From assembly GCA_017411715.1 (NCBI GenBank), contig JAFQPO010000014.1, positions 6,161 through 70,160 on the forward strand: DNA of 64,000 nucleotides. The letters are read 5' to 3'. The DNA is from Bacilli bacterium (lineage in GTDB: Bacteria; Bacillota_I; Bacilli_A; ML615J-28; CAG-313). The position numbers and the translations under genes are program-made. Below are positions 7,635 to 34,355 of this stretch, in pieces. The notes under the pieces are model-generated. The model saw nothing but the letters and a program-made list of their open reading frames with translations, made no database searches and was not told the DNA's origin. Within the stretch, counting starts at the first letter, position 1. Every line of letters begins with the position of its first letter.

Positions 7635-7635
7635 A

Positions 7636-7662
7636 ATGCCTAAATAGGCATTTTTTCTTTTG
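7636..7662 (+). terminator. rho-independent terminator
   Basis: AATGCCTAAATAGGCATT followed by TTTTTCTTTT. Confidence 0.75.
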
Positions 7663-7732
7663 TCATTTTTTGGAAAGTATAATAAAACAATTTTAACTAA
7701 TAATATTTTTGAACACGAAATGAGGTGAAAGC

Positions 7733-8515: not shown

Positions 8516-8587
8516 AAAAGATATCTTTTCGATATCTTTTTTTTATGATTTGTGGTATAATATATTAAACAAAAAGAGGAAATAATT

Positions 8588-9955: not shown

Positions 9956-10057
9956 ATGCGGATATAAATAAAAAAATTACATATTGCTTGTATTATTTAT
10001 GATTTTATGATATAATATGTACGTTAATTTAGGTATCAATTTTTTGGAGGTACAATT

Positions 10058-13785: not shown

Positions 13786-13872
13786 GCGGTTGTGGCGAAA
13801 CTGGTAGACGCGCTACTTTGAGGGGGTAGTGTCTGCAAAGACATGTCGGTTCGAGTCCGATCAACCGCACCA
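13786..13872 (+). tRNA. tRNA-Leu (anticodon GAG), class II with long variable arm, CCA encoded
   Basis: Cloverleaf read manually: acceptor GCGGTTG/CAACCGC, anticodon loop TTGAGGG, T-loop GGTTCGAGTCC. Confidence 0.85.
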
Positions 13873-15361: not shown

Positions 15362-15435
15362 ATAATAAAATAATTTAGAAAAACACTTCACTTTTTTAAA
15401 GTTTTGTTACTATATTAATGAAAGGAGATATCATT

Positions 15436-19175: not shown

Positions 19176-20897
19176 ATGAAAAAGTATTTATTTGTATTTT
19201 TAATTTTGTTGTTATTAACTGGTTGTAATGTTCAAAATAGTCATTCTCATAATCAATGTCCAGAATGTAGCAAATGTATATCTGAAGATTGTAATGGTAC
19301 TGAAAATGAAAAATGTCAAGGACACCAACTAGTACATACACATACTGAATGTCAAGAATGTGGCAAATGTATTGCAGAAGATTGTGATGGAGCAGAAGAA
19401 CTAAAGTGTAGTGGTCACGAACATCATATATATAAATTAACAATAATTGATGAAGATAATTTAATTTATGATAAGCCTACTGAAACAAGTTGTGAATCAG
19501 ATACTAAAATTGTGATGCACTCTCACCCAATAATAGATGCTGATTTAGCAATGTATATAAATGGTGAGTTTCATTCTATTCAAAATACAATAATGGTAAA
19601 CGATGAAACTGTTTGGGAATATTCATTTATAATGCCAGAAAGAGATACTACTATTGAATTTAAGACTCAAACATTAGAATATTTTGATGTAAAAACTGTT
19701 CTTGGTATTCCCTCATTAACAAGAGAAGATATTTTAAGAATAATTTATCATACTATTAATTTAAGTAGCGAACCCATACCGGGTAGTTTAAGAATAGTAA
19801 TTAGTACTACAGATTATGAAGATATTACTTATATGTTATGTTTTTTAGATGCAAATGTGGTTGAAGATAGAAGTAATAATTGGCAAGAGGATGCTGGTAG
19901 TTGTGAGAAGTATTCAATTTGTACAATTGATAAAAAATACGATTTTGAAATAATTAATGGATATATATCAGTTAATAATAAACACTATAAACTTCTAGGG
20001 TATGGACCTGGCATGAGTTATGGAATTATTACTTCTGCTTTTAATACTAATTTAGATTCATATGAGGCATATACATTAGATGGCACAAAAATTGGTGATT
20101 TTAATGGTTTATCTGAATTTGAGTTTTATGAAATTAAGGCTCCTTTAACAGGTGTAGATGATTATGGATATTTAGAAACTGAGTTTGGAAGAATTTATAT
20201 TCACGATTCAAAGACATTTTACATCAAAGATGGCGAAAACTATACTTACTATAAATTAATTTGGGAATGGGAAAAAGACTTTAGCGATATATTTAACAAA
20301 CACACACATACCGAATGTGAAGAATGTGGAAAATGTATAGCAGAAGATTGTAATGGAACTGAAAATGAAAAATGTCAAGGCCATCTTATTATTACTGATG
20401 CAATACCAGTACCTATTACAAGTATTACTTTCAATAATGGAAATGAATTAGAAGAATTTATAAAAAATCATGAAAACTTTAATAAATGGGTCTACATGAA
20501 TGAAATTATTAAAAATAATGAAACTATAAATGTTTATAATAAAAGCTATAGTTTTAATTATGATGAAGAAAAAGATGGCAAATATATTAATCCATATCTT
20601 ACAATAAGTTTCGCATTATATAGTGAAGTATTAGGAACAGATACTGGAGATGACGATGTTTTATATCATTCTATTTCATTTTTAATTAATATTAGACCTA
20701 ATGATTTAAAAGATAACATTAGTTATAAATTTTGCAAATATAGTAATAATAAAAATATGTACAATAACGTAGTGCTTATTTACAGTGGAGATAATGTTAT
20801 TGGAGAGGCATATTATTACACAAAGCTAGATGTTACTAAAAACTGGATAATTGAATTTTTAAATGAAAACTTATTAATGCCAATTAAAATAAAATAA
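19176..20897 (+). CDS. lipoprotein with three Cys-rich repeats (CxxCxKCIxEDCxGxExxKCxGH)
   Basis: Lipobox LLLTGC. Repeats at aa 28-52, 59-82 and 383-406 are near-identical at the DNA level; no recognised domain. Confidence 0.6.
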   Translation: MKKYLFVFLILLLLTGCNVQNSHSHNQCPECSKCISEDCNGTENEKCQGHQLVHTHTECQECGKCIAEDCDGAEELKCSGHEHHIYKLTIIDEDNLIYDKPTETSCESDTKIVMHSHPIIDADLAMYINGEFHSIQNTIMVNDETVWEYSFIMPERDTTIEFKTQTLEYFDVKTVLGIPSLTREDILRIIYHTINLSSEPIPGSLRIVISTTDYEDITYMLCFLDANVVEDRSNNWQEDAGSCEKYSICTIDKKYDFEIINGYISVNNKHYKLLGYGPGMSYGIITSAFNTNLDSYEAYTLDGTKIGDFNGLSEFEFYEIKAPLTGVDDYGYLETEFGRIYIHDSKTFYIKDGENYTYYKLIWEWEKDFSDIFNKHTHTECEECGKCIAEDCNGTENEKCQGHLIITDAIPVPITSITFNNGNELEEFIKNHENFNKWVYMNEIIKNNETINVYNKSYSFNYDEEKDGKYINPYLTISFALYSEVLGTDTGDDDVLYHSISFLINIRPNDLKDNISYKFCKYSNNKNMYNNVVLIYSGDNVIGEAYYYTKLDVTKNWIIEFLNENLLMPIKIK

Positions 20898-20899
20898 AT

Positions 20900-20973
20900 C
20901 AATCAAGCCAGTTAACAACAAAAACGTTAGCTGGCTTTTTAAATAGTAGAAATAAGTGAGGAAATGTGGTATA
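20900..20973 (+). repeat. family-2 terminator/promoter cassette, copy 1
   Basis: GCCAGTTAAC..GTTAGCTGGC hairpin plus TTTTTAAATAGTAGAAATAAGTGAGGAAATGTGGTATAAT. Confidence 0.75.
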
Positions 20974-21055
20974 ATTGATAATATTAAGGGATGAAACCAA
21001 TTGTTGCATTGACTAACTAATACTTAGTGAGTATAATGGTGGTAGAGGTGATAAA

Positions 21056-21577
21056 ATGAATAATAGAATAAAACAATTTAGATTAAAGAATAAACTTACT
21101 CAACAACAGTTGGCAGATTTAATGGATGTTACTCGCCAAGCTGTTACAAGATGGGAAAGTGGTACAGTTGAACCATCAACTGAAAACTTAATTTCACTTG
21201 CACAAATATTTGACTGTAGTGTAGATGAATTAATATGCAATGATTTAATAACTCCAAAAGAGAAAATGGTCATTAAAGAGGTATTAGTTAAAGAAGAAAA
21301 GAAACCATCTTTTTGGAGTATAAATAAAGCAAACATATTTTTATACATTATTAGTGCTATTGCATTTATAACATACTTAGTATTAAGATTTACTACAAAT
21401 TATTCAATAACTGTAGTTGCAGTTGTACTATTTCCAATAATCATTATTTCGACTATAATAAGTTTAATATGTAATATTGATGAAATAAAAGATAAAGTAA
21501 ATTTTAAAAAGTTTATACTACCGCCAATATTAATTATAGTTGGCTTTATATTTTTGGGTATTTTATTGGAGTTTTAA
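21056..21577 (+). CDS. membrane-anchored HTH-XRE regulator
   Basis: N-terminal HTH (LTQQQLADLMDVTRQAVTRWE) plus three C-terminal TM helices. Confidence 0.6.
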   Translation: MNNRIKQFRLKNKLTQQQLADLMDVTRQAVTRWESGTVEPSTENLISLAQIFDCSVDELICNDLITPKEKMVIKEVLVKEEKKPSFWSINKANIFLYIISAIAFITYLVLRFTTNYSITVVAVVLFPIIIISTIISLICNIDEIKDKVNFKKFILPPILIIVGFIFLGILLEF

Positions 21578-21591
21578 AGGGAAGACAGTAT

Positions 21592-22269
21592 ATGAAGAAA
21601 TTTATAATAGTCATAGTATGTTTGATTTTGATGTTGCTCACAGGTTGTGTTCAAGATTCAAAAAATTCACATAATAGTTGTTTAGAATGTGGAAAATGTA
21701 TAGCTGAAGATTGTAATGGATTAGAAGAGGAAAAATGTCAAGGACATCAAGTAATTCATCAACATATTGAATGCAAAGTGTGTGGTAAGTGTGTAGATGT
21801 GAAATGCGATGGCAAAGAAGATGAAAGATGTAACAAAACTTATCAGGTAACGTTAGAATCGCATCAATATATATCATTTACTGATTCGTTAGAAGATCTA
21901 CAATTTTACATTATTCAAGACTACAGCCAATATATTGAATTCATTGAAAAAAATGAAATTAAGGAAATATATTATGATGAAGAGAATAATATCCATTATA
22001 ATGAAGAAATAGCAAATCAATTTACTGAAGAATTTTTTATTGATAGTGCACTTGTCTTAATATCATATTTTACAGCAACTTCATTAGATGATTTAACTGT
22101 TATAAAAAGTTATGAATTAGAAAATGGTATTTTAAATATAAAATTTGGTGTCCCTAAAACAGATTTAATTCCAAAGAATAATTGTTATTTGGTATATATG
22201 TTTAAATGTGACAAACATATATTAGATGATTTTGTAACAGTAGAATATAAGTTTGGAGTAAAAAACTGA
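21592..22269 (+). CDS. lipoprotein with two Cys-rich repeats (same motif as 19176..20897)
   Basis: Lipobox LLTGC; CLECGKCIAEDCNGLEEEKCQGH and CKVCGKCVDVKCDGKEDERC. Confidence 0.55.
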   Translation: MKKFIIVIVCLILMLLTGCVQDSKNSHNSCLECGKCIAEDCNGLEEEKCQGHQVIHQHIECKVCGKCVDVKCDGKEDERCNKTYQVTLESHQYISFTDSLEDLQFYIIQDYSQYIEFIEKNEIKEIYYDEENNIHYNEEIANQFTEEFFIDSALVLISYFTATSLDDLTVIKSYELENGILNIKFGVPKTDLIPKNNCYLVYMFKCDKHILDDFVTVEYKFGVKN

Positions 22270-22324
22270 CATTGTTAAAAATATTAAATATGTCGGTTTA
22301 TGATGCTCACAAATAAAATAACCA

Positions 22325-22398
22325 ATTCAAGCTAGTTAATCAAAAAACGTTAGCTGGCTTTTTAAATAGTAGAAATAAATGAGGAAATGTGGTATAAT
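22325..22398 (+). repeat. family-2 terminator/promoter cassette, copy 2
   Basis: Near-identical to copy 1. Confidence 0.75.
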
Positions 22399-22422
22399 AT
22401 TTACAAGAAGAGGTTTAATTAA

Positions 22423-23781
22423 ATGAAAAATATTACTGATGAACAAAAAATATATGAACTATCATTAATATGGAAAGAAGCTGAGTATAATTTTGCTTTT
22501 TGGCATAAATTTGACAAATCTTTTAATTGGGATGAAGAATATAAAAAAGCATTGGAAAGAGTATTAAAAACTAAAAATATATATGAATATTATAAAGAAC
22601 TAATGAGATTTGTTGCATTATTGAAAGATGGACACACCGGTGTGTGGTTGCCTAAAGAAGTGATTAATTCAGATGAGTATTTTTCTACAATACCGCTTTT
22701 GGTTCAGTTTATTGATAATGAATATGTGATTACGAATGTAGATGTTTCAATTAAAGATATTGTTAAAAGATATAGTATTATTAGAATGATTGATGGAATT
22801 CCAACTAAGAAGTATATTAAAGAAAATATCTATCCATATATTTGGCATGAAAAAGAAGATAGTTGTGCATACCAAACAATTGCTTATTTATTTAGAGGTC
22901 CATTAAATAGTAATGTAGAATTACTACTTGAAGATAATGGTGTTGAATATAATGTTATACTAACTAGAACAAATAAGAAAATACAATATTACTATCCCCA
23001 AGTAAAATTTAGTTCAGAACCCCTAACAACAATTTATGATTCTAAATCACATATGATTCAAATGACAAATGATGGAATTACCATTATTACAATTCCTTCA
23101 ATGATGAATGATGAGTTAGGTGAAGAAATATTTAAGAATTATGAATTATTAAAAAATGCTAAAGGATATATAATTGATATTAGAAATAATGGTGGAGGTA
23201 ACAGTAATAATGCTGACCATGTTGCATCACTATTTATAGGTAATTCCTTTAGAACTGATAATGCATATCATCCAATCCATATTGGAGCTTATAAAGCATG
23301 GGGAAAATATAATAAAGTTAATGAAATGACTGAGGAAGAGTTTAAACAGCAATATGGTGATAATCCTTTCTATGAAAAAATATATAAAATTTGTAATCAC
23401 GTATACTATGAACATAATGATTCAGATACTGAAATTCAAGATGTACCAGGTAAATTAGATGGTCCAATTGTTATTTTAAGTTCAGCATATACTGCATCAG
23501 CGGCAGAAAACTTTATAAATGTCATGAAATATAACACTAATGCAATTATAATCGGAAGTGCTAGTTTTGGATCAACAGGACAACCACTTATGTATGAATT
23601 AGAAAGTGGTGGCGGGTTTAGAATTTGTACTAGAAGAAGTTTAGCATTAGATGGTTCTGAATTTATTAATTATGGATTTAAACCAGATATTGAATGTTGT
23701 TTAAGTATTGATGATTTAAAAACAAATGCAGATTCAGTAATGAAAAAAGCTTTAGAAACTATAAGAGAGAAAATTCATTAA
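22423..23781 (+). CDS. S41-family peptidase (C-terminal processing/tail-specific protease-like)
   Basis: N-terminus LSLIWKEAEYNFAFW; catalytic-Ser region SAYTASAAENF. Confidence 0.55.
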   Translation: MKNITDEQKIYELSLIWKEAEYNFAFWHKFDKSFNWDEEYKKALERVLKTKNIYEYYKELMRFVALLKDGHTGVWLPKEVINSDEYFSTIPLLVQFIDNEYVITNVDVSIKDIVKRYSIIRMIDGIPTKKYIKENIYPYIWHEKEDSCAYQTIAYLFRGPLNSNVELLLEDNGVEYNVILTRTNKKIQYYYPQVKFSSEPLTTIYDSKSHMIQMTNDGITIITIPSMMNDELGEEIFKNYELLKNAKGYIIDIRNNGGGNSNNADHVASLFIGNSFRTDNAYHPIHIGAYKAWGKYNKVNEMTEEEFKQQYGDNPFYEKIYKICNHVYYEHNDSDTEIQDVPGKLDGPIVILSSAYTASAAENFINVMKYNTNAIIIGSASFGSTGQPLMYELESGGGFRICTRRSLALDGSEFINYGFKPDIECCLSIDDLKTNADSVMKKALETIREKIH

Positions 23782-23820
23782 AATGAGTAAATCTTTTATA
23801 ACCATAAGTATTTAAAAAGG

Positions 23821-24591
23821 ATGGATAGTATGAGTAATAAATCAAAAGAAAGAGCGTTTGAAATTATAAAATATTATGTTGACCAAATAAGTAAATTACC
23901 TTTTATAAAATCAATAATATTAGATGGAAGTTTATCAGATGATACATATACGGGTAATAAAGGCAGTGATATTGATATTGTAAATGTTATAGAGTCTAAT
24001 AATTATTATGAAGATAAACTATATTTGTTAAAGTTAATAGAAGACATTGAAAATTTTACTAACAAAGATATTCCTATTTCAAAAGTGGTTTATAACTATA
24101 GTCAATTATTCCATCCTTATGATTATAATTTTGATGTGAATAAAACCAATAAAGATTTAATTGAACTTCCAATTGAAGTATTAAGGATAAAATATTCTGG
24201 CAAAACTCTATATGGTGAAGATATAATTAGTGTTATAGATCAACCAACAAAAGAAGATGTTTTATATTGCAAAGAACTTAATCAACAATTACTTATGAAA
24301 CAAGCTAGTGAGAATCCCAAAGGGTATTCTTCATATTTGGAAACAATTAAGAATCCACCTATGAGTATATTGTGCCAAATTGTAATAACTACAGCAATGG
24401 AAGATTATTTTTTGGTTTTGGGTAAAAATTGTTCTAGTAAACGTAAGATATTAGAATGTATCGAAAAGGATTGGCCTCAATACGAAAAAATCGAATTATT
24501 AAGAATATGTCATAAGTATCGTGTTAATAATAGTTTGTCTAAAGAAGAAGAGATATTAGCGGGCAAATTATATAAAGAATTTTTTGTATAA
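23821..24591 (+). CDS. nucleotidyltransferase-domain protein (Pol-beta superfamily; possibly ANT-like)
   Basis: LDGSLSDDTYTGNKGSDIDIV motif of the GS...D.D type. Confidence 0.45.
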   Translation: MDSMSNKSKERAFEIIKYYVDQISKLPFIKSIILDGSLSDDTYTGNKGSDIDIVNVIESNNYYEDKLYLLKLIEDIENFTNKDIPISKVVYNYSQLFHPYDYNFDVNKTNKDLIELPIEVLRIKYSGKTLYGEDIISVIDQPTKEDVLYCKELNQQLLMKQASENPKGYSSYLETIKNPPMSILCQIVITTAMEDYFLVLGKNCSSKRKILECIEKDWPQYEKIELLRICHKYRVNNSLSKEEEILAGKLYKEFFV

Positions 24592-24820
24592 CTATTGTTG
24601 ATTAAATCATTATATCTCAACATCCTAACCCCATTTTAACACCTGTAGCAGACTTTCAAAAAGCTATTACAAACAAACCAAGGTAAGAAATCAAATGAGG
24701 ATGTGGACCAAATTTGAGACAATTAGACTGTGAGGTAATACTTGCAGTCTTTTCTATTTCTTAAAAAAAAGACTTATAGTCCCATACACCATATAAAAAG
24801 ATAGATATCGTAGCAATTAG

Positions 24821-25048
24821 ACATTTTCTGAAATCTATAAGTCTTCTAGTAAGGCTTATTTTTTTTGCATTTTATATGGTATTTTAGCTAGTTTTAGTTA
24901 GAATACCTTATTTTTTTATACATTTATGAAACATTTAGATTTAAAGACAAGGTGAGACTGACCATGGACTCGAACCATTGACTTACGGGTGTCGAACCTT
25001 TAGTTCTAACGGGATTCGAACCAATAAGAGATAATGGTGGAAATATAT
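24821..25048. repeat. family-1 module, full copy C
   Basis: ACATTTTCTGAAATCTATAAGTCTTC...; terminator hairpin GGTATTTTAGCTA/TAGTTAGAATACC plus T-run; TTTATGAAACATTTAGATTTAAAGACAAGGTGAGACTGACC; three units ending GGACTCGAACC / GTGTCGAACC / GGATTCGAACC; then AATAAGAGATAATGGTGGAAATAT. Confidence 0.7.
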
Positions 25049-25132
25049 TTTAAAAAATAGTATAATTTATTTAAGAAATATGCGAACCATTTTTAAAATT
25101 TATACACTATATAGGTGTAAGAGGTAAATGCT

Positions 25133-26770
25133 ATGAATGAGAAAGAACAATTAATTGAACAACTGGTGGCACAAAAGGATAAAGTATTCTTTTATTGTGT
25201 GAAACGTTGTAATAGTATAATAGATGCTGAAGATTTATCACAAGATATACTGCTTGATATTATGGTTAATATTAACAAAGGTATTAAGATAGAAAACTTT
25301 GATTATTATATTTGGCAAATATGTAAAAACCATTATAGTAAGTATGTAGCTAGAATTGTTAAAGATAGAGATAATATAATGTTTGTTGAAGAAATAGATG
25401 AACCCGGGAATGAACTTTCTTCATTAGACAAACTAATTAATTCTGAAAAACTCGCAATGATTAATGCTGCAATAAAATTATTATCAAGTGATTATTCAGA
25501 AATACTTTATTCATATTATATTGAAGATAGATCGTTATCATTTATAGCAGAAAAATTGAATCTACCTCTTGGAACTGTCAAAAGAAGATTATTTGACATA
25601 AGGAATAAACTTAAGGAGTATTTAAAAATGGAAAGATTAAATGGAAGAAAAGCATTTGTACCTAAAGAATATGAAACACATAGAAGTGGTGGAGCAAGTT
25701 TAAATCCTGAAGAATACACATATGGATTGATCCAACAAAACTTATTAATGCATTCGTATGGTAATCCATGTAGTTTAGAAGATTATTCGTTGGAAATGGG
25801 AATAAGCTTACCATACATTGAAAATATAGTTGATAGTTTAGAGCATGCAACATTATTAATAAAAGATGAAAATGGAAAATATTTAACTAATTTCATAATG
25901 GTAGATAAAAATATAGATCAAAAGGTATTAAAATTAGTTAGACAAAGGGCAAAGGAATATACGAAGTTAATAGTTGAATATTGTAAAAAACATTTTAATG
26001 ATTGGAAAGTTTTAGTCAATAATCCTTTACTTGATGATAATAAATTAATGTGGTCGTATATGTTTAATACTAATAGAAAAGTTGAGTATTTAGATTGCAC
26101 TAAAGAAGAAACCAAAAAAACAATGAGACATCACAGTCATATTGTTGAAGGTGGTAGTTGGGATTTTTGTATGTCAGAAGCTTATGATTCAGAAATAAAA
26201 AATTTCCAAATTAATGAATGTATAGATGGAAATGGTGTGATAGGATTACAAGGATTATTATATCCAGGGCAAAGGAAAATTGATGGTATTAATTCAGAAG
26301 CATTAAAATGTATAAGATGGGATAATAGTGCGAATTGGGATGCTGATTTTGAATTATTTGGATATTTGCTAAAAAATAAAAATATCAAATATTCAGATTG
26401 TGTATATACTCTTAAATCTGCTGTTGATAATATGGTTAAAGAAAACTACTTGCGAATTGAAGATGATACTATAAAATTCAATTTTGTATTATTAGATTTT
26501 GAAAAAGCAACAATTAATAAAGATGATGAATATAGTACTGAATTAATTCCAGCTAAACAAAAAAGAAAAGAAATCACTAATGAAATTATAGATATATTTA
26601 AAGATGTTATTCCTGAATATTTATACAAAGACTTAGATTACATTGCTAATTCATACTTTGTAGCAAATATGAGACAATATGTAGTAATGGCTTTTGAAGA
26701 AGAAGGTTTGATTAAACCAGTTAATGAAAATAGATTTGTATATAATATGTTTTGTTGGGAAAGAAAATAA
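25133..26770 (+). CDS. sigma-70-family (ECF-like) protein with about 370-aa C-terminal extension
   Basis: Region 2 DAEDLSQDILLDI; region 4 SLSFIAEKLNLPLGTVKRRLFDIRNKL; same architecture as 15436..16992. Confidence 0.6.
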   Translation: MNEKEQLIEQLVAQKDKVFFYCVKRCNSIIDAEDLSQDILLDIMVNINKGIKIENFDYYIWQICKNHYSKYVARIVKDRDNIMFVEEIDEPGNELSSLDKLINSEKLAMINAAIKLLSSDYSEILYSYYIEDRSLSFIAEKLNLPLGTVKRRLFDIRNKLKEYLKMERLNGRKAFVPKEYETHRSGGASLNPEEYTYGLIQQNLLMHSYGNPCSLEDYSLEMGISLPYIENIVDSLEHATLLIKDENGKYLTNFIMVDKNIDQKVLKLVRQRAKEYTKLIVEYCKKHFNDWKVLVNNPLLDDNKLMWSYMFNTNRKVEYLDCTKEETKKTMRHHSHIVEGGSWDFCMSEAYDSEIKNFQINECIDGNGVIGLQGLLYPGQRKIDGINSEALKCIRWDNSANWDADFELFGYLLKNKNIKYSDCVYTLKSAVDNMVKENYLRIEDDTIKFNFVLLDFEKATINKDDEYSTELIPAKQKRKEITNEIIDIFKDVIPEYLYKDLDYIANSYFVANMRQYVVMAFEEEGLIKPVNENRFVYNMFCWERK

Positions 26771-26850
26771 AAATGAAGAATATTGTCAGTTAGCTTAGAT
26801 GGTTAACTGACTTTTTTCTTATAAAAGACGTATCATTTATGATGTAATGA

Positions 26851-27077
26851 AACATTTTTTGAAATCTGTAGGTCTTCTAAAAAGAGGATCTATTTATTAT
26901 TTTTATAGACTATATTGCTTGAAATATAGTGAAATAGTCTCTTTTTTTATACATTTATGAAACATTTAGATTTAAATACCTAAGGAGAGCGACCACGGGA
27001 TCGAACCATTGTCTTACGGTTGTTGAACCTTTAATTCTAAGGGGACTAGAACCTATAAGAGACTTAAAATTTGACAC
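26851..27077. repeat. family-1 module, full copy D
   Basis: Same architecture as copy C; units GAGCGACCACGGGATCGAACC / ATTGTCTTACGGTTGTTGAACC / TTTAATTCTAAGGGGACTAGAACC; then CTATAAGAGA and promoter TTGACA..17 bp..TGATATAAT. Confidence 0.7.
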
Positions 27078-27241
27078 TGTATATTTATAAATGATATAAT
27101 ACATTTATAAATATAAAAATGTTGAATATATGTAAGTTTTAAATTTAATTTAACATGTTGTTATTATCATAAAAAGTTGTTTATTAATATTAGACAATTG
27201 TGTTTATTAAGATTTTTTAAGAATTTTTTGAGGAGTAAAAT

Positions 27242-28129
27242 ATGGCAAGTAATAATGAAAAAGGAAAAAAATATGAGGGATTCTCTAAAGAGATATTATT
27301 GTTACAAAATTTAACATGGGATTACGATTCACAAAATAAGAATATTAAGTTTGATAAAGATGTAGAAGATCATAAGATTGAAGGTATTTCTGGTCAAAAA
27401 CATCAAATAGATATACATCTTATTTCAAGTAAAAATCCAGAGTTTCATTTGCTATGTGAATGTAAAGCACATAATCCGGCAGTTGAAAAAACACATGCTT
27501 GCTCATTTGTTACCGTAATTACTGATATTAGAGATAAACATAAAGATTGGAAAATTATTCCTGTTTTTACAGCTGAAGATGGATATCAAAGTGGTGCAAA
27601 AAAAATTTTGCATTATTATAAAATTATTTATTTTGAAATGAAAGACTATAGAAATGTACAAAGAACTTTTAATACTAACATTACCTCAAAAATGCCAAAA
27701 TTTGAAGAACTTAATGGTATATTAGAAGATGGAACTATTGTTGATAGGGATGTTTGCTTAATAAATTATTCAAGAGGTGATAGTTATGGGATAACTAATG
27801 CTATTAAAAGTTTTGAACTTTTTGATAGCAATAATAAGAAAATTGAAAATCTTATAGACTTCACTGGTGAATTTCATACGGGAGATAGATGTATAATGAT
27901 AGATGATTCTGATGAGTTTTATGAAGTGCGTACTAATAAAAAACTTGTTGCGATAAATGGCACTGTAGTTGGGAATACAACATGTAATTTAGGTTCGAGT
28001 CAAACTGTTATCAAATCTAAAGCAGTTACTAATATAATTCTTGATGATGGAAATATATATCGAATTAATAAAGATGGTACATGTGAAAAATATTATGATC
28101 AGGATGAATCAAAAAAGATATTTGAATAG
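27242..28129 (+). CDS. restriction-endonuclease-like (PD-(D/E)xK, Mrr-cat type) N-terminal domain protein
   Basis: GISGQKHQIDIHL...EFHLLCECKAH fits a D..(D/E)xK nuclease core; C-terminal half unassigned. Confidence 0.4.
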   Translation: MASNNEKGKKYEGFSKEILLLQNLTWDYDSQNKNIKFDKDVEDHKIEGISGQKHQIDIHLISSKNPEFHLLCECKAHNPAVEKTHACSFVTVITDIRDKHKDWKIIPVFTAEDGYQSGAKKILHYYKIIYFEMKDYRNVQRTFNTNITSKMPKFEELNGILEDGTIVDRDVCLINYSRGDSYGITNAIKSFELFDSNNKKIENLIDFTGEFHTGDRCIMIDDSDEFYEVRTNKKLVAINGTVVGNTTCNLGSSQTVIKSKAVTNIILDDGNIYRINKDGTCEKYYDQDESKKIFE

Positions 28130-28470
28130 TTTTTTAAAAAAATAATGTTTTTGTAAAAAGAATTTTAAGAAACTTGTAAAATTATGAAACTATATATCGA
28201 ATATAAACTATGATAGCTTTATTAGACTGTATAAAAGTAGTAAATAAGAGCACAATAGAATTCCAATTTAAATTTGATATAATAATTCAAGAATATTTAT
28301 AAAATGCCAGATAGACTATTCTAAATGGCTTTCTTTTACATTAAAATATGAATCAAATGATTTACAAAAATAAATTTATGTGATATAATATATTTGTCAA
28401 TTGGAGAGACACTCATTACTAAAAATGTTATTGACTACATTGTTTATCATAATAAAGGAGGAGACACTCA

Positions 28471-29016
28471 TTGGAAAAAACAGAAGGTAAAAAAACCGTT
28501 ATTGTCATTGATGAGCAAGGTAATAAATTAGAATCTACGTACCCTAAAAGGGCAAAGGGTCTTATTAAGAATGGTAGGGCACGAGTTGTAGATGAAAATA
28601 CTATATGCCTTGTGGACCTACCAAAACATATAATTTTGGAGGAAAATAAAATGAATAATAACAATATAAATTTAGAAGAAAACAAAGAAGTAAAAATTGA
28701 TTTAGCTTACATCATGAATAAGATTGATGAAATTACTAAAATTAATTTGGAATTAGTTAGCAATAAAGATTTAGCTGATATGTCAGTTGTTCTAGGTGCA
28801 AAAAATCCTGTTCAATGCATTTGTGAAACTAATAATAAGATGATTGATTTCTTACAAGATATTTACAAATCACTTCAACCAAAACAAGAATCAGAATTGA
28901 ATACACAAATTATAAATGGTTTAACTAATGCTTTGATGAATGCAATTGAAGAAGAAGCTGACCAATCAGTAATCGCACATATTACTGACACTCTTGCTAA
29001 GTATATTGAAAAGTAA
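28471..29016 (+). CDS. hypothetical protein (TTG start)
   Basis: AAAGGAGGAG RBS; terminator AAGGATTTAGCCGATATGGTTAGATCCTTTT downstream. Confidence 0.4.
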   Translation: MEKTEGKKTVIVIDEQGNKLESTYPKRAKGLIKNGRARVVDENTICLVDLPKHIILEENKMNNNNINLEENKEVKIDLAYIMNKIDEITKINLELVSNKDLADMSVVLGAKNPVQCICETNNKMIDFLQDIYKSLQPKQESELNTQIINGLTNALMNAIEEEADQSVIAHITDTLAKYIEK

Positions 29017-29205
29017 TTAAAAAAATAAAGGATTTAGCCGATATGGTTAGATCCTTTTGTTATTAAGTAAAGCACTTTTTGTTCAGTTGCTAAAATAAGG
29101 TTATTACGACAAAAAGAAACATTTAACACTTTTTATTTTGTAAATTAAGAAAAAAGCACTTTCTGATTTGTAAAACGTTAAAAAAACACTTTTTGTCGTA
29201 ATGAC

Positions 29206-29432
29206 ACATTTTTTGAAATCTATAGGTCTTCTGAAAAGAGGATCTATTTTTTATTTTTAAGGACTATTTTACTTAAAATATAGTGAAATAGTCTCTTTTT
29301 TTACCTGTTTATGAAACATTTAGATTTAAACAATAGGTGAGACTAACCACGGACTCGAACCATTAACTTACGGGATTCGAATGTTAGGTTCTGATGGGAC
29401 TCGAACCTATAAGAGATTGATGATTTGACATG
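29206..29432. repeat. family-1 module, full copy E
   Basis: ACATTTTTTGAAATCTATAGGTCTTC...; hairpin GGACTATTT..AAATAGTCTC plus T-run; units GACTAACCACGGACTCGAACC / ATTAACTTACGGGATTCGAATG / TTAGGTTCTGATGGGACTCGAACC; then CTATAAGAGA and TTGACA..TGGTATAAT. Confidence 0.7.
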
Positions 29433-29646
29433 ATATATTTACTAATGGTATAATATATATAAAGAAATAAAACTTTTTGTCACCTTTTGCTATGTTAAAT
29501 TGTTTTATATATGAAAGGATAAAAGTTCTCTTAATTAGAGATGATATTCTAGTGCATAAATATAAAATATGTATAATCATATAAATAAGTAAAATATTTC
29601 CAACAAAATGGACTTTTATTTGTTATATTAAAAGGAGGTTTATTTA

Positions 29647-30726
29647 ATGAAGAAAATATTAGTTAGTATGTTTTTATTAGTATTTGGATTATGTTTAGTT
29701 GGGTGTGAAAATATTGGTAATAGTAAAACTTATGAATTAACAATTCAAAATCAAACCGAATATGAATTAATAGGAATAAAGAATGAATATAAAGGAGATG
29801 AAGAAGTAGAAATCAAAATGATATATGAAGATGATGTATGTACTTTTGCATTTTTAGATGGTGAATTATTGGGTGAACTAACTGGAATTGATTCAATAAA
29901 ATTTAATATGCCTGCAAAAGATTCAGTATTGACAATCAGTTATTCGGAAGAAATATATAAAGTAAATGTTATTGATAATTTTGACTTAATAGAAGAAGTG
30001 CTTAATGATTATTACGCACCTGAAGAAACAATAATCTTTCATGTATCACATGAACTATATGATAATATTACAGTAATTATTAATGGGAAAGTAGAAGAAG
30101 GAATTGATCCGTTAATTGGAACTAATAACTTCAAAACATATTTAGTTAGAATGTCCGAAGGAGAATGTGAAATAAAAGTAACTGTTAATGGACTAAGTGA
30201 TTACTCATGTAATGATAATTTACATCATTATGAAGAAGAAATAAAAAAAGTTGATAACTCGTATATTAAAGAATCTACGTGTAAATTATGTGGTGAAATA
30301 GTTCAAGAAGAAATAACTAAAATTAAATTAGATACTATAATTTTATATTTTGGTAGTTATTCAGATGATAATTCATTTGTATTATTTGTAAAGGAATATA
30401 ATTTATCAAATAGAAAATATCTAATTATAGATAATGTTGAAGCATATTATGAGATATATCCTAATATTCCACGTATGAATAAAGAATTATTGAGTGATGA
30501 AGAAGCAGATGAATTCTTTAAAAATAATATAATGGTATTACATATAAGATATATTAGTGGTACTTTAGATTTTGTCCCTGTTAATTATTATTATAACACA
30601 ATACTTAATAATATAATTATGGAATATACAAATGATGTTTCTGGTGACTATATAACACAATTTTTAGGTAATACCCTTGATATAATTACAATTCCTAAAA
30701 AGTACTATAATAAAATTAATAAATAA
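29647..30726 (+). CDS. lipoprotein, function unknown
   Basis: Signal plus lipobox LCLVGC. Confidence 0.5.
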   Translation: MKKILVSMFLLVFGLCLVGCENIGNSKTYELTIQNQTEYELIGIKNEYKGDEEVEIKMIYEDDVCTFAFLDGELLGELTGIDSIKFNMPAKDSVLTISYSEEIYKVNVIDNFDLIEEVLNDYYAPEETIIFHVSHELYDNITVIINGKVEEGIDPLIGTNNFKTYLVRMSEGECEIKVTVNGLSDYSCNDNLHHYEEEIKKVDNSYIKESTCKLCGEIVQEEITKIKLDTIILYFGSYSDDNSFVLFVKEYNLSNRKYLIIDNVEAYYEIYPNIPRMNKELLSDEEADEFFKNNIMVLHIRYISGTLDFVPVNYYYNTILNNIIMEYTNDVSGDYITQFLGNTLDIITIPKKYYNKINK

Positions 30727-30729
30727 CCA

Positions 30730-30801
30730 ATCAAAGCTAGTTAACCAAAAAGTTAGCTGGCTTTTTAAATAGTAGAAATAAATGAGAAAATGTGGTATAA
30801 T
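30730..30801 (+). repeat. family-2 terminator/promoter cassette, copy 3
   Basis: AAGCTAGTTAACC..GTTAGCTGGCTTTTTAAATAGTAGAAATAAATGAGAAAATGTGGTATAAT. Confidence 0.75.
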
Positions 30802-30824
30802 ACTTTCATAAGAGGTGCATTAAT

Positions 30825-31157
30825 ATGAAAGAACTAACAACAAAAGAACAATATGAATATTTTGAAGAAACATTTAATAAATTTAATACTACTCTTTTAA
30901 ACCAAAGTGATGATGATATTGAATATATAATTTTTGAAGATATTATAGATAATGTTGTTTCATTTTTGCATTCAATAGTGATAGATAAATTATTAGAAGA
31001 AAAATATATTAATAGTGAAGTATATGATTTATGTTGTGATTTTAGAAAACAATTTCTAGTGTTAGAAGAAAAATCATTAAGAAGTGCAACTGAAATTAGA
31101 AAAAGTAAAGAATGGCTAGACTTAATAAAATTAGCTGATGAGATTAAGAATAAATAA
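30825..31157 (+). CDS. hypothetical small soluble protein
   Basis: ORF directly downstream of a family-2 cassette. Confidence 0.4.
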   Translation: MKELTTKEQYEYFEETFNKFNTTLLNQSDDDIEYIIFEDIIDNVVSFLHSIVIDKLLEEKYINSEVYDLCCDFRKQFLVLEEKSLRSATEIRKSKEWLDLIKLADEIKNK

Positions 31158-31168
31158 TAGGAGAGCTT

Positions 31169-31348
31169 ATGATAAAAAGTATTTTGAAAATTATATTATG
31201 TTGCATAATAGCATATCCTATTTGCTATTTACTAACACAATTAGAAGGACTTAAAACTAATTATAATTGGGCTGTTATTTTAGTGATTGATTTAATAGTG
31301 TGTATTGGCTTAATTCTATATACAATATTGAATAAAAAGAATAAATAA
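31169..31348 (+). CDS. small membrane protein (59 aa, two TM helices)
   Basis: Not in the ORF track. MIKSILKIILCCIIAYPICYLL...; RBS AGGAGAG. Confidence 0.4.
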   Translation: MIKSILKIILCCIIAYPICYLLTQLEGLKTNYNWAVILVIDLIVCIGLILYTILNKKNK

Positions 31349-31425
31349 CTAATTAAGTCGGTTAGCCAACTTTGGGTTAGTTGGCTTTATAAATAGTAGA
31401 AATAAATGAGTAAATGTGGTATAAT
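31340..31425 (+). repeat. family-2 terminator/promoter cassette, copy 4 (variant hairpin)
   Basis: AGCCAACTTTGGGTTAGTTGGCT plus TTTATAAATAGTAGAAATAAATGAGTAAATGTGGTATAAT. Confidence 0.7.
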
Positions 31426-31466
31426 AGTTATGCATAAATGATTGTATAAGAAAGGATATTGATTAT

Positions 31467-32018
31467 ATGATAATAGAGAATAAAATTGATAAAATAAAAC
31501 TTCAAGATAGTATGAAACTATTTATTAAGTATGCCATGCTAGATCAGACAAAGAAAGTAAAAAAATTGATAATTATAAGCTTAATAGCTTGTGTAGTTGT
31601 AATTTTAGGTAATATTGTTTTACAAAAGTTATATATTTTAATATTTGGTATATTTGGAATTTTATTTAATATTTTCTTAATATTTAGATATAGAAATACT
31701 CAAAGAAAACAATATGAGAAAGTACTTAAAGAGCAATTAAATAAATATGGTGAAATAGATATCATAACTAGAAAACATGTTTTTGATAGCCGTAAAATGT
31801 TACTTGAAATTAAAAACGGTGAAAATATAGATACATTAAATTTTAATTTTGATAATTATTATAAGTTATGGATTGAAGAAGATAATAAAGTTGTTGTTAT
31901 ACAATTTGGTGAAAAACCAAATGGTAAATTAGTAGTAATTTATTGTGATGATGTAAATGGATTTAAACAATATTGTGTTATTAATAATATTAATTTTGAA
32001 ATAGTAAAGACTAAATAA
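31467..32018 (+). CDS. hypothetical membrane protein
   Basis: Two TM helices after residue 30. Confidence 0.4.
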   Translation: MIIENKIDKIKLQDSMKLFIKYAMLDQTKKVKKLIIISLIACVVVILGNIVLQKLYILIFGIFGILFNIFLIFRYRNTQRKQYEKVLKEQLNKYGEIDIITRKHVFDSRKMLLEIKNGENIDTLNFNFDNYYKLWIEEDNKVVVIQFGEKPNGKLVVIYCDDVNGFKQYCVINNINFEIVKTK

Positions 32019-32021
32019 CTA

Positions 32022-32093
32022 AACAAAGTCAGTTAACCAACGTAAAGGTTAGCTGGCTTTTTAAATAGTAGAAATAAATTAGGAAATGTGGTA
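32022..32093 (+). repeat. family-2 terminator/promoter cassette, copy 5
   Basis: GTCAGTTAACC..GGTTAGCTGGCTTTTTAAATAGTAGAAATAAATTAGGAAATGTGGTATAAT. Confidence 0.75.
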
Positions 32094-32193
32094 TAATCAT
32101 AGCATGCAACAAATTAGATACATAATGTAAATACTTGTTGCTGTAATATATAAATGATATATTATATACTAAAATCGAAAGGAGGATATTATT

Positions 32194-32610
32194 ATGACAA
32201 TAGCAGAAAAGATAAAACAATTGAGAAAAGATAATAGCATGACTCAAGAAGATTTAGCAGAAAAGTTAAATGTATCTCGTCAAACCATTTCTAAATGGGA
32301 AACAAGTGTTACAATACCAGATGCGGATAATATAGTAGCAATTTCTAAATTGTTTAACATCACAACTGACGAATTATTAGATTATAGGGTAGAAACTGTT
32401 CAAAAGAAAAAACAATTTATAATGGATATGGCAGTATTGCTATTTGGAATTATTGGATTTATCGTATTTGCAATTTTGCTTATGACTAATCAAATAGACG
32501 AAACATCATCAGTAATTACAATTAATGGTTATGGAATTGCAGCAATTCTTTTCTTAATACTAATTATTGCTTTTATCATAGTAATGATTAAACGAAATGC
32601 AAAAAAATAA
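32194..32610 (+). CDS. membrane-anchored HTH-XRE regulator
   Basis: MTQEDLAEKLNVSRQTISKWE plus two TM helices. Confidence 0.6.
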   Translation: MTIAEKIKQLRKDNSMTQEDLAEKLNVSRQTISKWETSVTIPDADNIVAISKLFNITTDELLDYRVETVQKKKQFIMDMAVLLFGIIGFIVFAILLMTNQIDETSSVITINGYGIAAILFLILIIAFIIVMIKRNAKK

Positions 32611-32839
32611 ATTAAAGATTTTAGTAATAGTATTGTTTTTTGTGCTTATAACAACTTTTGGAATTTATCTAGTTAAAACGATTATTGAGTGTATCAATAC
32701 TTATAACGATATTACGACATCATTTCCATGGTATACTCCTATATTAATTAATAGTTTAATATTTGTTATTCCGCTAATAATTGAGATACTTGTTCTAGGA
32801 TATTTTTATATACGATTAAAACAAAAAAATAATAAATAG
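32597..32839 (+). CDS. small membrane protein
   Basis: Overlaps the upstream stop; two TM helices. Confidence 0.4.
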   Translation: MQKNKLKILVIVLFFVLITTFGIYLVKTIIECINTYNDITTSFPWYTPILINSLIFVIPLIIEILVLGYFYIRLKQKNNK

Positions 32840-32845
32840 ACATAG

Positions 32846-32917
32846 AGGTCAGTTAACCAATAAAAAAGTTAGCTGTCTTTTTAAATAGTAGAAATAAATG
32901 AGGAAATGTGGTATAAT
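32846..32917 (+). repeat. family-2 terminator/promoter cassette, copy 6
   Basis: GGTCAGTTAACC..GTTAGCTGTCTTTTTAAATAGTAGAAATAAATGAGGAAATGTGGTATAAT. Confidence 0.75.
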
Positions 32918-32939
32918 TTATAATGTGAGGTATTGATGT

Positions 32940-33464
32940 ATGAATGATTATATAAATTTATGCGATGTCGATATAAGAAAGCAAACTAAGACTTTTAAAT
33001 TAGTGTTTATTATACTATCTATTATAGTAGTTATATTATTAATAGTCGGTATTTTTAATAAGTATGTTTTTGGAATTGGGTTGGCTTTCGTAATTACTCC
33101 TATTGCTGCTTTTGGTTCTTATTTTTGGTGCTTACAAAAATATGAAAAATTAGCGAAAATTGAAAATGATGAGTTATGTATCTATAAATACAATAAGAAA
33201 TTAAAATTTAAATTAGACCTCAAAAACATTAAGTTTTCAAATTACATTGTTCGTTTGAGTGGGTTTGGTGCATACGACACTGTTGTTGAAAGAGAATGTT
33301 TAGTGCTTCATTTCAATGAATTAGAAAAATGGCGTTTTTATAAAGAAAATGTAATTGATTATAGATGTTGTAATAAAGATAATTCAGTAGTTGTGATACA
33401 TAATAAAGTATTGACTGAATTCATTATGAAGAACTATGTATTTATAAATCATAAAAGCGTATGA
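32940..33464 (+). CDS. hypothetical membrane protein
   Basis: Two TM helices near the N-terminus. Confidence 0.4.
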   Translation: MNDYINLCDVDIRKQTKTFKLVFIILSIIVVILLIVGIFNKYVFGIGLAFVITPIAAFGSYFWCLQKYEKLAKIENDELCIYKYNKKLKFKLDLKNIKFSNYIVRLSGFGAYDTVVERECLVLHFNELEKWRFYKENVIDYRCCNKDNSVVVIHNKVLTEFIMKNYVFINHKSV

Positions 33465-33616
33465 CATTATCATAAAATAAACACACAGAATTTTTTAAAT
33501 GTTTTTTAATCAGTAGAAAATTAAGGAAAATATGATATAATAATATACGATAATTTGAAAAAGTACTTAATTATAAAATTATATTATTGAGAGTGCACTA
33601 ATTATAGGAGGATTAG

Positions 33617-34342
33617 ATGTTTGAATTAAATCATTTGTTATGGTTATTAATTTCAACTTTTGTTATTACTTTCCATATATTAATAAATATTAAATATAAA
33701 CCATCTTTTAAAGCTAATTTAACTGCTTTATTTATTGTTGCGGTAATATCTGAAATTACTAAAATATTAATAAATATGGAATCACTTGTAGGAGATACAT
33801 TTGATACATCAGGGACATATTTAAATTATGAATCTTTACCATTTCATTTATGTGCAATGCAAATATTTTTTATTACCGCATTAATGTTTTTTGTCAAAAA
33901 TGAAAGTACAAAATCAAAAATTCTTGGTTTTATGGTGCCAACTATGTTAATGGGTGCTGCGCTTGCATTGTTTATCCCTACTAATGGTACTGATTTTACA
34001 GATGCACAAGTTTATCAATATTTCATATTCCATTCTTATTTAATAGCATTTGCGGTATACTTATTATATAGTAAAAATGTAGTTATTACATTTAAAGTTA
34101 TGTTTAGAAATATAGCGTATTTATTAGGACTAGGCGTAATATGCATTTATATTAATGGAATGTTTAGTTTTGCGGCTACTAATTTTATGTTTATATCTAG
34201 ACCACCGATGGAAAATTTACCTTTTCTGAATTTAAATCAAGGCTGGCATATGTATTTTGCGAAACTACTAATTATTTTAATGGTTCTTATGGTTTCGTTT
34301 CATTTGCCTTTTGCATTGTACTATCGTAGAAATCAAAAATAA
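33617..34342 (+). CDS. polytopic integral membrane protein (6-7 TM helices)
   Basis: Hydrophobicity pattern; preceded by a degenerate family-2-like promoter at 33491-33541. Confidence 0.45.
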   Translation: MFELNHLLWLLISTFVITFHILINIKYKPSFKANLTALFIVAVISEITKILINMESLVGDTFDTSGTYLNYESLPFHLCAMQIFFITALMFFVKNESTKSKILGFMVPTMLMGAALALFIPTNGTDFTDAQVYQYFIFHSYLIAFAVYLLYSKNVVITFKVMFRNIAYLLGLGVICIYINGMFSFAATNFMFISRPPMENLPFLNLNQGWHMYFAKLLIILMVLMVSFHLPFALYYRRNQK

Positions 34343-34355
34343 AGGAATTTATAAA

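Follow-up and report, generated by a model that had tools for sequence, protein, structure and literature searches.

A repeated hairpin and promoter-like unit between unrelated accessory genes in a variable chromosomal island of uncultured gut Bacilli

An accessory island with six copies of one intergenic unit

We describe a short intergenic unit, consisting of a hairpin, a T-run and a promoter-like block, that recurs in front of unrelated genes in a 64,000-nucleotide stretch of DNA (the window, whose positions are used throughout) from a Bacilli bacterium of the GTDB lineage Bacillota_I, Bacilli_A, ML615J-28, CAG-313 (assembly GCA_017411715.1, contig JAFQPO010000014.1, positions 6,161 to 70,160). 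The window is chromosomal DNA of about 28% GC, and all units lie in a 21-kb accessory island (14231-35299, + strand) that runs from just after tRNA-Leu(GAG) (13786-13872) to a uracil/xanthine permease gene. GC content is 22-27% within the island, in contrast to 28-33% in the flanking housekeeping DNA, and every island gene is on the + strand. RNase R, SmpB, a thioesterase gene and tRNA-Leu(GAG) stand to the left, and the permease gene, NAD salvage genes, asnA and ileS to the right. The island itself encodes two XRE regulators (one with TPR hits), two ECF-type sigma factors, Cys-rich lipoproteins, a methyltransferase, an S41 peptidase, membrane-anchored XRE regulators and many small proteins without a family.

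The 40-base block of the unit, TTTTTAAATAGTAGAAATAAATGAGGAAATGTGGTATAAT, matches the window six times with 0-2 mismatches (starts 20936, 22359, 30762, 31386, 32058 and 32878), always on the + strand; chance alone would give none, and none turned up in 100 shuffles. No further match was returned when the 64-kb window was searched with this 40-mer, and a 30-mer covering the 3' hairpin arm, the T-run and the -35 region, GTTAGCTGGCTTTTTAAATAGTAGAAATAA, finds the same six sites only. A profile hidden Markov model (HMM) of the unit recovers the six copies at E = 1e-16 to 1e-21, and neither it nor the 40-mer or the 30-mer detects a copy in the 51 kb of the window outside the island. The unit was also recovered independently by a repeat finder, as an 84-nt family. 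Compared as direct repeats, the copies share 46-49 of their 3' 50 bases, and in an alignment of all six the similarity ends directly 3' of TATAAT. An earlier note on this DNA had counted six or seven copies. Six are confirmed, but the seventh, degenerate copy at 33491-33541 is only the best sub-threshold match of a promoter-only HMM (E about 1.4-2), has no hairpin and is not significant. What lies there is a candidate decayed promoter-only relative (33501-33541, + strand; TAGAAA-16-TATAAT) in front of a TMEM164-family gene (33617-34342), without statistical support.

The first copy (20900-20975) has its hairpin arms at 20907-20916 and 20926-20935, the T-run at 20936-20940 and the -35 element TAGAAA at 20947-20952, and closes with TGTGGTATAAT at 20975. 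It separates a gene for a 573-residue lipoprotein (stop codon at 20895-20897) from a membrane XRE gene (21056-21577), which has a second promoter-like site of its own, TTGACT-17-TATAAT at 21009-21037, in its leader. Copy 2 (22325-22398), likewise with hairpin, T-run and promoter, is located 24 bases 5' of the S41 peptidase gene (22423-23781). Copy 3 (30730-30801) overlaps the stop codon of a lipoprotein gene (29647-30726) and is followed by genes for proteins of 110 and 59 residues (30825-31348), while the most diverged copy, copy 4 (31350-31425; 2 mismatches in the 40-mer, arm variant GGTTAGCC/GGTTAGTTGG), precedes the gene for a 183-residue membrane protein (31467-32018). Copy 5 (32024-32097) carries a rare spacer variant, ATTAGG, and is followed by a 96-base leader, a second membrane XRE gene (32194-32610) and a gene for an 80-residue protein (32597-32839). 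Copy 6 (32844-32917) comes after this pair of genes and before the gene for a 174-residue membrane protein (32940-33464). The coordinates given in the earlier note were right to within a few bases, with the corrections that copy 1 ends at 20975 rather than 20973, copy 5 spans 32024-32097 rather than 32022-32093, and copy 4 starts near 31350.

A terminator-like hairpin and a promoter-like block

Read 5' to 3', each unit consists of a stop-codon-rich A/T stretch, the hairpin, a run of five T and the block AAATAGTAGAAATAAATGAGGAAATGTGGTATAAT. The A/T stretch (consensus AATAAATAACCAATCAAAG) overlaps the stop codon of the upstream open reading frame (ORF) in five of the six window copies, and the hairpin starts 5-20 bases 3' of the upstream stop in five of the six. 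Its arms, GCCAGTTAAC and GTTAGCTGGC, form 10 pairs. Folded as + strand RNA, the six hairpins reach -11.3 to -19.0 kcal/mol, with z-scores of -3.5 to -6.6 in five of them and a weaker value in copy 4 (z = -2.0). The - strand RNA folds at -6.2 to -14.4 kcal/mol and is weaker than the + strand in five of the six copies, the means being -14.5 kcal/mol for the + strand and -10.3 kcal/mol for the - strand. Across 36 copies from many sources, 97.5% of stem positions are paired, and the variation consists mostly of C/U changes opposite G on the 5' arm. Since such changes keep the pair in RNA of the + strand only, they suggest that selection acts on the hairpin in + strand RNA. Two loci have units in which pairing is restored by changes on both arms (L047 and L051; loci collected from other assemblies are cited by L numbers), and 64 of 67 distinct units retain at least 9 of the 10 pairs. 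The loop ranges from 4 to 21 bases and the whole hairpin from about 25 to 40. Together with the T-run, the hairpin has the signature of an intrinsic (Rho-independent) terminator, predicted to end transcription of the upstream gene. As the earlier note had described, a stem of 9-10 bp and a T-run, followed by the invariant extended -10 element, are present in each of the six copies.

Other identities for the hairpin were considered. The arm CCAGTTAAC resembles a VirR/AgrA half-site; LytTR/VirR-type boxes were nevertheless dismissed, since the two arms face each other as inverted repeats at a spacing that can be anything from 4 to 21 bases. An ECF-sigma promoter inside the hairpin (AAC..CGT) was discarded because a 7-9-base spacing is far too short. 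The Rfam 15 covariance models gave no match to 20800-33700 at E <= 1, and at gathering score they identified three tRNAs only in the whole window.

The 40-base block is composed of a T/A-rich upstream portion, the -35 element TAGAAA, a 17-base spacer and a -16 TRTG with an extended -10 (TGTGGTATAAT). A consensus scan found TAGAAA, 17 bases and TATAAT with a preceding TG in all six copies (10 of 12 hexamer matches); its total of promoter-like sites does not exceed that in shuffled sequence, so the motif by itself says little. Ends of the TGTGGTATAAT type, with 2 mismatches, also lie before topA, a tRNA methyltransferase gene and other housekeeping genes of the window, which indicates that this end is the ordinary -16/-10 element of the organism. 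Outside that end, the block is confined within the window to the island. The earlier note had allowed that the block might turn out to be a generic promoter of housekeeping genes; only the TGTGGTATAAT end is of this kind. The distance from TATAAT to the start codon is 17-34 bases, and 60-104 bases for the XRE regulator genes. The block thus reads as a sigma-A-type promoter whose activity is predicted from its sequence. A small ORF starting at an ATGAGG inside the block was rejected, as the ATG is GTG or ATT in other copies.

The terminator-like and promoter-like halves can occur apart. At 26785-26811 (+ strand), a hairpin-only relative of the unit (GTCAGTTAGC..GGTTAACTGAC and T6) is followed by a long repeat, here called D1, instead of the 40-base promoter. 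The same succession of a hairpin and this different, ~290-base repeat is found in L004 and L026. In L001, L003, L017 and L029 the promoter lies ~30 other bases away from the hairpin, and in L032 the 3' part of the promoter is fused to D1. The relative at 26785 in particular points to two separable modules.

The extent of conservation in the block raises the question of a bound factor. It is possible, although we consider it unlikely, that the block is invariant because one regulator binds it, such as a membrane XRE protein or a partner of the ECF sigma factors of the island, and that the cassettes (as we call the genes between two units) form its regulon, recombination being a side effect. The conservation does include the spacer and the portion 5' of the -35 element, the block is conserved even in those loci where it is ~30 bases off the hairpin or fused to D1, and it holds two GAAAT repeats 12 bases apart. 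XRE is also the commonest family in the arrays (17 loci), and ECF sigma genes recur. On the other hand, the block, as read from its sequence, has no dyad symmetry beyond TTTAAA, its -16/-10 region is of the generic housekeeping type, and no regulator is linked to every array, since neither XRE nor ECF sigma genes are universal. The same conservation is also expected from gene conversion, for which there is direct evidence (see below). The loop of the hairpin points the same way, as pairing is kept over arm spacings of 4 to 21 bases, unlike a protein operator with two half-sites at a fixed distance. The shared operator of a regulon, which the earlier note had offered as an alternative, therefore found no direct support. 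Binding of a regulator can, in any case, be compatible with the linker model developed below.

Distribution, cassettes and their variation between strains

The pattern GTAGAAATAA-N6-AAATGTGGTATAAT was used to scan one genome per prokaryotic species. The pattern fixes 24 bases, and the conservation of those bases among the hits is therefore partly circular; the 20 bases 5' of it, which are free of this bias, are 90-100% conserved. The scan returned 14 loci, 13 of them at 25-29% GC, and 12 belong to seven metagenome-assembled genomes (MAGs) that come from the gut of ruminants, chickens and humans and carry the labels Bacilli, Mollicutes or Staphylococcaceae. L004, a contig of 26% GC in a Methanobrevibacter MAG, carries both the unit and D1 and is probably mis-binned. 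The match in a Ruminococcus MAG (L007, 43% GC, before a gene for a 435-residue protein) lacks the hairpin and flanks and was taken as an ordinary promoter that converged on the pattern, and L025, also without hairpin or flanks, was judged likewise. A scan of metagenomes added 23 loci, mostly on contigs shorter than 3 kb. Counted by species, the unit is present in about nine MAG species of low-GC, uncultured Bacilli of animal guts. The viral contigs of IMG/VR held no exact match to the pattern, and when 30700-33550 was compared by BLASTN with collections of phages and plasmids, the HTH-coding part of the XRE gene was all that matched; with no unit match in either, a phage or plasmid origin of the array was rejected. 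The number of exact pattern copies per MAG is 2-4, on 2-3 contigs, which argues against a generic genome-wide promoter. We found no prior description of the unit in a literature search on its sequence and on the concept.

These observations bear on whether the unit could be a miniature transposable element (MITE), similar to Correia elements, that carries an outward promoter and a terminator and hopped into many intergenic sites. As a short, multicopy hairpin element with promoter and terminator potential, the unit does resemble Correia and other MITEs (PMC10969869). However, it has no terminal inverted repeats (the best end-to-end match is 11/25) and no visible target duplication, and strains differ by whole cassettes rather than by the presence or absence of the unit alone. 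Moreover, the few exact copies in each MAG all lie in these islands and always in gene orientation. A MITE origin is largely refuted by these features, and we regard it as very improbable.

The genes that follow the units are diverse. In the DNA fetched for these loci, 39 protein families are found behind the 72 units for which a downstream ORF was called, and BLAST clustering placed the 239 ORFs of the unit loci in 143 families, of which 100 are singletons. Identified families include XRE, GNAT, NUDIX, methyltransferases, MerR, LRR, Imm26, DUF4288, DUF5984, DUF5104, PNP_UDP, S66 and S41; GNAT, NUDIX, methyltransferase and HTH dominate, and most cassettes have no family. Immunity-type hits were limited to a single Imm26 and a single LRR in a scan of 20 downstream proteins, and further LRR hits to two LRR_8 among 112 neighbouring ORFs and a faint one in L047. 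PADLOC found no match to a defence system among 10 island proteins. The cassette pool is a mixture of accessory genes, not a set of paralogues and apparently not mainly immunity genes. Separately, L046 contains a complete DpnII-type restriction-modification system (two methyltransferases and an endonuclease; 7476-9965) inside its array, 3' of the XRE138 cassette described below, which indicates that arrays are able to hold multi-gene defence modules.

This diversity speaks against an origin in which one ancestral gene and its promoter were duplicated in tandem and the coding sequences diverged thereafter. The units are indeed direct repeats in one orientation, and some neighbouring genes are paralogous, among them the Cys-rich lipoproteins and the XRE proteins. 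The earlier description of the downstream genes as non-paralogous accordingly needs one amendment, as the membrane XRE proteins after copies 1 and 5 are distant paralogues (35% identical), while no similarity is detectable among the others. But the downstream proteins at large belong to unrelated folds and Pfam families (S41, GNAT, NUDIX, PNP_UDP, LRR, Imm26, HTH), with 39 families behind the 72 units. We give duplication and divergence almost no credence, and as the origin of the array as a whole it is refuted. The recent duplication suggested by the earlier note is likewise not right, given that the unit is common to several species and the genes it precedes are unrelated.

Whole cassettes, in contrast, do change places. 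The 138-residue membrane XRE protein encoded after copy 5 (XRE138) was looked up by its exact sequence and occurs, identical, in at least 10 different neighbourhoods of public assemblies. All have a unit 5' of the gene and a unit 3' of the 80-residue protein gene, and the cassette (32098-32843, + strand) is 94-98% identical in nucleotides to that of the window. The homologous stretch begins within the upstream unit. Its end is at the TATAAT of the downstream unit (32917-32920) in six of the nine contexts compared; in the remaining three, it runs 25-35 bases longer or is stopped by a contig end. The 96-base leader (32098-32193) is conserved in all contexts and contains a palindrome, GCAACAA..(22 bases)..TTGTTGC, that is a candidate autoregulatory operator or RNA hairpin.

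The most informative of these contexts is L048, a 229-kb JGI metagenome contig whose flanks are 98-99% identical to the window. It aligns with window positions 29247-30801 at 99.2% and then directly with 32012-32917 at 97.9%, continues at copy 6 with 2.2 kb that hold three other cassettes, and rejoins the window at 32833-36330 (98.0%). Lacking in L048 are 1,296 bases (30802-32097, + strand), which comprise two cassettes (the 110- and 59-residue proteins; the 183-residue protein) and one unit. The unit at the junction is a hybrid: it has the flank, hairpin and loop of copy 3, followed by the rare ATTAGG spacer and the XRE leader of copy 5. The crossover therefore falls within the 33 bases that copies 3 and 5 have in common, and unequal homologous recombination between two units predicts exactly such a hybrid, with 1,296 bases removed or added. 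Elsewhere, junctions coincide with the stop codon, lie in the loop or follow the spacer, so that crossover points appear scattered over the unit. Two units of L045 have a private variant in common, GAAGAGATG, which is what gene conversion inside an array would be expected to produce. XRE138 in at least 10 neighbourhoods and the L048 junction strongly support the cassette-wise shuffling proposed in the earlier note, which had called for a comparison of cassette number and order between strains; strains do differ by whole cassettes.

We therefore propose, as the probable explanation, that the unit serves as a standard linker between the genes of a hypervariable accessory array, carried on the chromosome of an uncultured low-GC gut Bacilli species, and that it also provides the homology for cassette exchange. 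The A/T stretch would usually supply or overlap the stop codon of the upstream ORF, the 10-pair hairpin with its U-run would end the mRNA of the upstream cassette, and the 40-base block, as a housekeeping-sigma promoter, would start that of the next. With a terminator and a promoter in every linker, each cassette would be separately transcribed and insulated from its neighbours. Being near-identical direct repeats, the linkers could at the same time act as portable homology, such that unequal crossing-over between them, together with replacement by DNA of related strains, may delete, insert and reorder cassettes. We infer that general homologous recombination, rather than a dedicated enzyme, is responsible for this exchange.

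Several observations weigh against this linker model or require additions to it. All 40 bases of the block are conserved, with a median of 1 mismatch in 50 across the 30 units found through the XRE138 protein look-up, a set that does not depend on the DNA pattern and so escapes its bias, the mid-spacer being the most variable part among them. This exceeds what a sigma-A promoter needs, and a bound factor or frequent homogenisation must be added to explain it. A T-G wobble is retained at one stem position in 29 of 36 copies for no evident reason. Window units are exactly identical over runs of 16-41 bases only; this is close to the minimum for RecA-type recombination, and events would accordingly be expected to be rare. 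For copies 1 and 2, on the left of the island, five places showed no variation of context, and a protein look-up of the S41 cassette after copy 2 returned only the arrangement of the window itself, thus providing no second example of variability; what is documented concerns the right-hand part of the island. Finally, a 27-base leader with a ribosome-binding site (ATTTACAAAGGATGGATTGATAGT, then ATG) is joined exactly at the start codon with at least six unrelated ORFs, and many upstream ORFs terminate within the left end of the unit. Recombination among units already in place cannot account for the first joining of new ORFs to such constant leader and stop parts. This leader is present at nine or ten junctions (L010, L013, L014, L019, L020, L004, L032, L043, L051), and other recurrent classes of leader, TRGAGTAGnnAAAGGAG and TTAnAnGTGAGG, also stand before different genes; 46 of 65 distinct junctions diverge immediately 3' of TATAAT.

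The constant leaders invite an account in which the array is a new platform for gene capture and expression in low-GC Gram-positive gut bacteria, with ORFs joined stop-to-start to a constant scaffold by a dedicated mechanism that recognises the hairpin or the unit, and homologous recombination only reshuffling them afterwards. We hold this to be rather improbable. A related and similarly doubtful explanation is that the unit or its hairpin is the site of a dedicated, unrecognised recombinase, site-specific or hairpin-targeting, which would make the array a functional analogue of an integron with the promoter riding along. Cassette borders are sharp, with homology ending at TATAAT in the six XRE138 contexts mentioned, and ORFs are joined to constant leaders exactly at the ATG. 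The arms loosely resemble integron cores (AGTTAAC versus RYYYAAC and GTTAGCT versus GTTRRRY, 6/7 each), and the conserved T-G mismatch of the stem recalls structural marks of attC. Against such an enzyme, the crossover in L048 falls in the middle of the unit and other junctions are scattered rather than fixed, stem variation fits pairing in + strand RNA, and the hairpin measures 25-40 bases as opposed to the 57-141 of attC. Moreover, no tyrosine or serine recombinase was found in the island or in recurrent neighbouring families: Pfam searches detected no recombinase in 21 island ORFs or among the 25 commonest Pfam families of the 112 neighbouring ORFs, and the Pfam hits precomputed for ten XRE138 contexts include none either. 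Y1 (REP-associated tyrosine, RAYT) transposases are also missing from the recurrent families of the neighbouring ORFs.

The sole recurrent recombinase-like family in the clustering of the 239 ORFs is the IS110 family, whose transposases are present in three loci and could be counted in favour of a dedicated enzyme. These genes (DEDD_Tnp_IS110 and Transposase_20) lie at L005 700-2500, L015 3389-4920 and L043 9009-10256, and the three proteins are 24-25% identical to each other in the comparisons made. The L005 gene (947-2185, - strand) is about 220 bases 3' of the TATAAT of a unit, and an 18-base tandem duplication (AAACATAAATAATCAAGT) directly follows that TATAAT.

The repeats may also affect how often such islands are recovered. 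The XRE138 cassette is recorded in 152 blocks of an assembly collection, and in 91 of these the longest carrying contig is shorter than 2 kb. Because a multicopy junction repeat leads to short contigs in short-read assemblies, the islands are probably under-represented in MAGs. Assemblies of the organism were also seen to break often at or just before the island (contig ends in L039 and L040). The contig breaks are consistent with units acting as assembly-breaking repeats and with mixtures of strains.

Relation to known systems and further features of the island

The closest resemblance in layout is to integrons, sedentary chromosomal integrons among them, and to clusters of attC sites lacking integrases (CALIN), as the earlier note had recognised in calling the layout integron-like and lacking attC, a description that holds. 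Here as there, compact, mostly single-ORF, unrelated cassettes, largely of accessory or unknown function, form one-directional arrays split by a repeated structured element, their cassette number and order vary between close strains, and their pools are rich in acetyltransferases and small proteins. Unlike in integrons, however, no IntI integrase was found here and there is no attI or Pc; a 25-40-base terminator-like hairpin with a promoter takes the place of the 57-141-base attC; each cassette has its own promoter-like element (TAGAAA-17-TGnTATAAT), whereas integron cassettes are mostly promoterless and depend on a common Pc; and crossovers are scattered over the unit. Identification of the hairpin as an attC site was rejected on its length and on arms that match the RYYYAAC/GTTRRRY cores at only 6/7. 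The host, one of the Bacilli, differs too: no complete integrons were found among Firmicutes or Tenericutes (PMC4889954).

A second parallel is offered by the rAID-1 (recombinase-associated acquired interbacterial defence) clusters of Bacteroidales, which have an XerD-family recombinase and repetitive intergenic sequences described as integron-like (bioRxiv 10.1101/471110). They too line up small accessory genes on the chromosomes of gut bacteria, in arrays whose GC is skewed and whose intergenic sequence is repetitive. But they are defined by the XerD recombinase and by immunity genes, where our arrays revealed no recombinase and few immunity-family hits, and they belong to another phylum and have an unrelated repeat sequence.

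The upstream homology box, or Erp promoter-operator, of Borrelia cp32 is a conceptual parallel, in that a conserved promoter-bearing region lies 5' of unrelated genes and is thought to have been spread by recombination. Those regions are found on multiple prophage plasmids, are bound by the operator proteins BpaB, BpuR and EbfC, precede lipoprotein genes only and have no terminator half, whereas the unit described here forms one tandem array and includes a terminator-like hairpin.

Repetitive extragenic palindromic sequences (REP), bacterial interspersed mosaic elements (BIME) and Correia repeats are short, palindromic and multicopy. Located 3' of genes, they can terminate transcription or stabilise mRNA, and in some cases they give rise to promoters (PMC3184786, PMC10969869). 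They are, however, dispersed genome-wide in tens to hundreds of copies and come with RAYT transposases or with terminal inverted repeats and target duplications, in contrast to a unit that is confined to one type of island, is oriented with the genes and varies between strains only together with whole genes.

If the linker model is correct, the array reaches an outcome comparable to that of integrons by simpler means, namely strain-specific, unrelated accessory genes at one chromosomal site. A cassette placed between two linkers would be immediately insulated and expressed, and the linkers would give the homology for its exchange. Should the promoter and terminator work as predicted, the units would be natural standard parts, and a 75-base part of this kind might serve the genetics of low-GC Firmicutes. 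In addition, the way in which new ORFs acquire their constant leader and stop region might hint at a mechanism not yet known.

Several other features of the island and the window were noted. Two XRE regulators are encoded at the head of the island. The one at 14231-15361 has TPR hits and an RNPP-like architecture suggestive of peptide quorum sensing, and its gene is 93.6% identical in DNA to that of L009, where it occupies a different neighbourhood; the one at 17264-18346 has a C-terminal part of roughly 300 residues without a Pfam hit. The ECF-type sigma factors (15418-16992 and 25133-26770; TIGR02937 at E = 1e-21 and 1e-18) are paralogues, 28% identical over their first 300 residues, and both carry a C-terminal extension of about 360 residues for which sequence comparison found no relative of solved structure. 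Similar ECF proteins of 524-547 residues are encoded in related islands (4 loci by clustering), and L045 encodes a Sigma70_r4 protein of 542 residues.

The lipoproteins encoded at 19176-20897 and 21592-22269 share a repeated Cys/His-rich motif of about 30 residues, H-x-H-x-EC-x-ECGKCIAEDCNG-x-E-x-EKCQGH, whose coding repeats lie at 19239-19419, 20298-20385 and 21661-21841. The motif belongs to no Pfam family and is possibly a metal-binding module. A similar signal peptide, without the Cys/His repeat, is encoded by the lipoprotein gene at 29647-30726. The first 40-70 residues of a 181-residue protein (28471-29016) weakly match the N-terminus of IscB/RRXRR (E = 8e-5 in Pfam and 4.5e-4 in NCBIfam, neither of which reaches the curated cut-off); the protein has no nuclease domains.

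The D1 repeat, roughly 290 bases long and intergenic, occurs in the window at 24805-25092, 26836-27123 and 29190-29477, with 63-80% identity between copies, and in many related loci (L002, L004, L009, L017, L026, L032, L043 and others). It contains two terminator-like hairpins, a conserved stretch, ATTTATGAAACATTTAGATTTAAA, and three GGACTCGAACC-like motifs, set apart from one another, which on the - strand look like tRNA T-arms. No Rfam match was obtained for D1, and a tRNA gene or half was rejected because the T-arm matches extend over only 12-16 bases. Two of the copies include a perfect TTGACA-18-TGnTATAAT promoter sequence. The genes that follow the copies are one of the two ECF sigma genes of the window, a gene for a 295-residue protein and a lipoprotein gene, and the GAACC motifs repeated in D1 might be a target of the ECF sigma factors of the island.

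Outside the island, topoisomerase I is encoded by two ORFs 36 bases apart, a Toprim part of 183 residues (5174-5725) and a Topoisom_bac part of 520 residues (5762-7324). The gene is split in the same manner in three other assemblies of the organism (L038-L040), which argues against an assembly error in a single sample.

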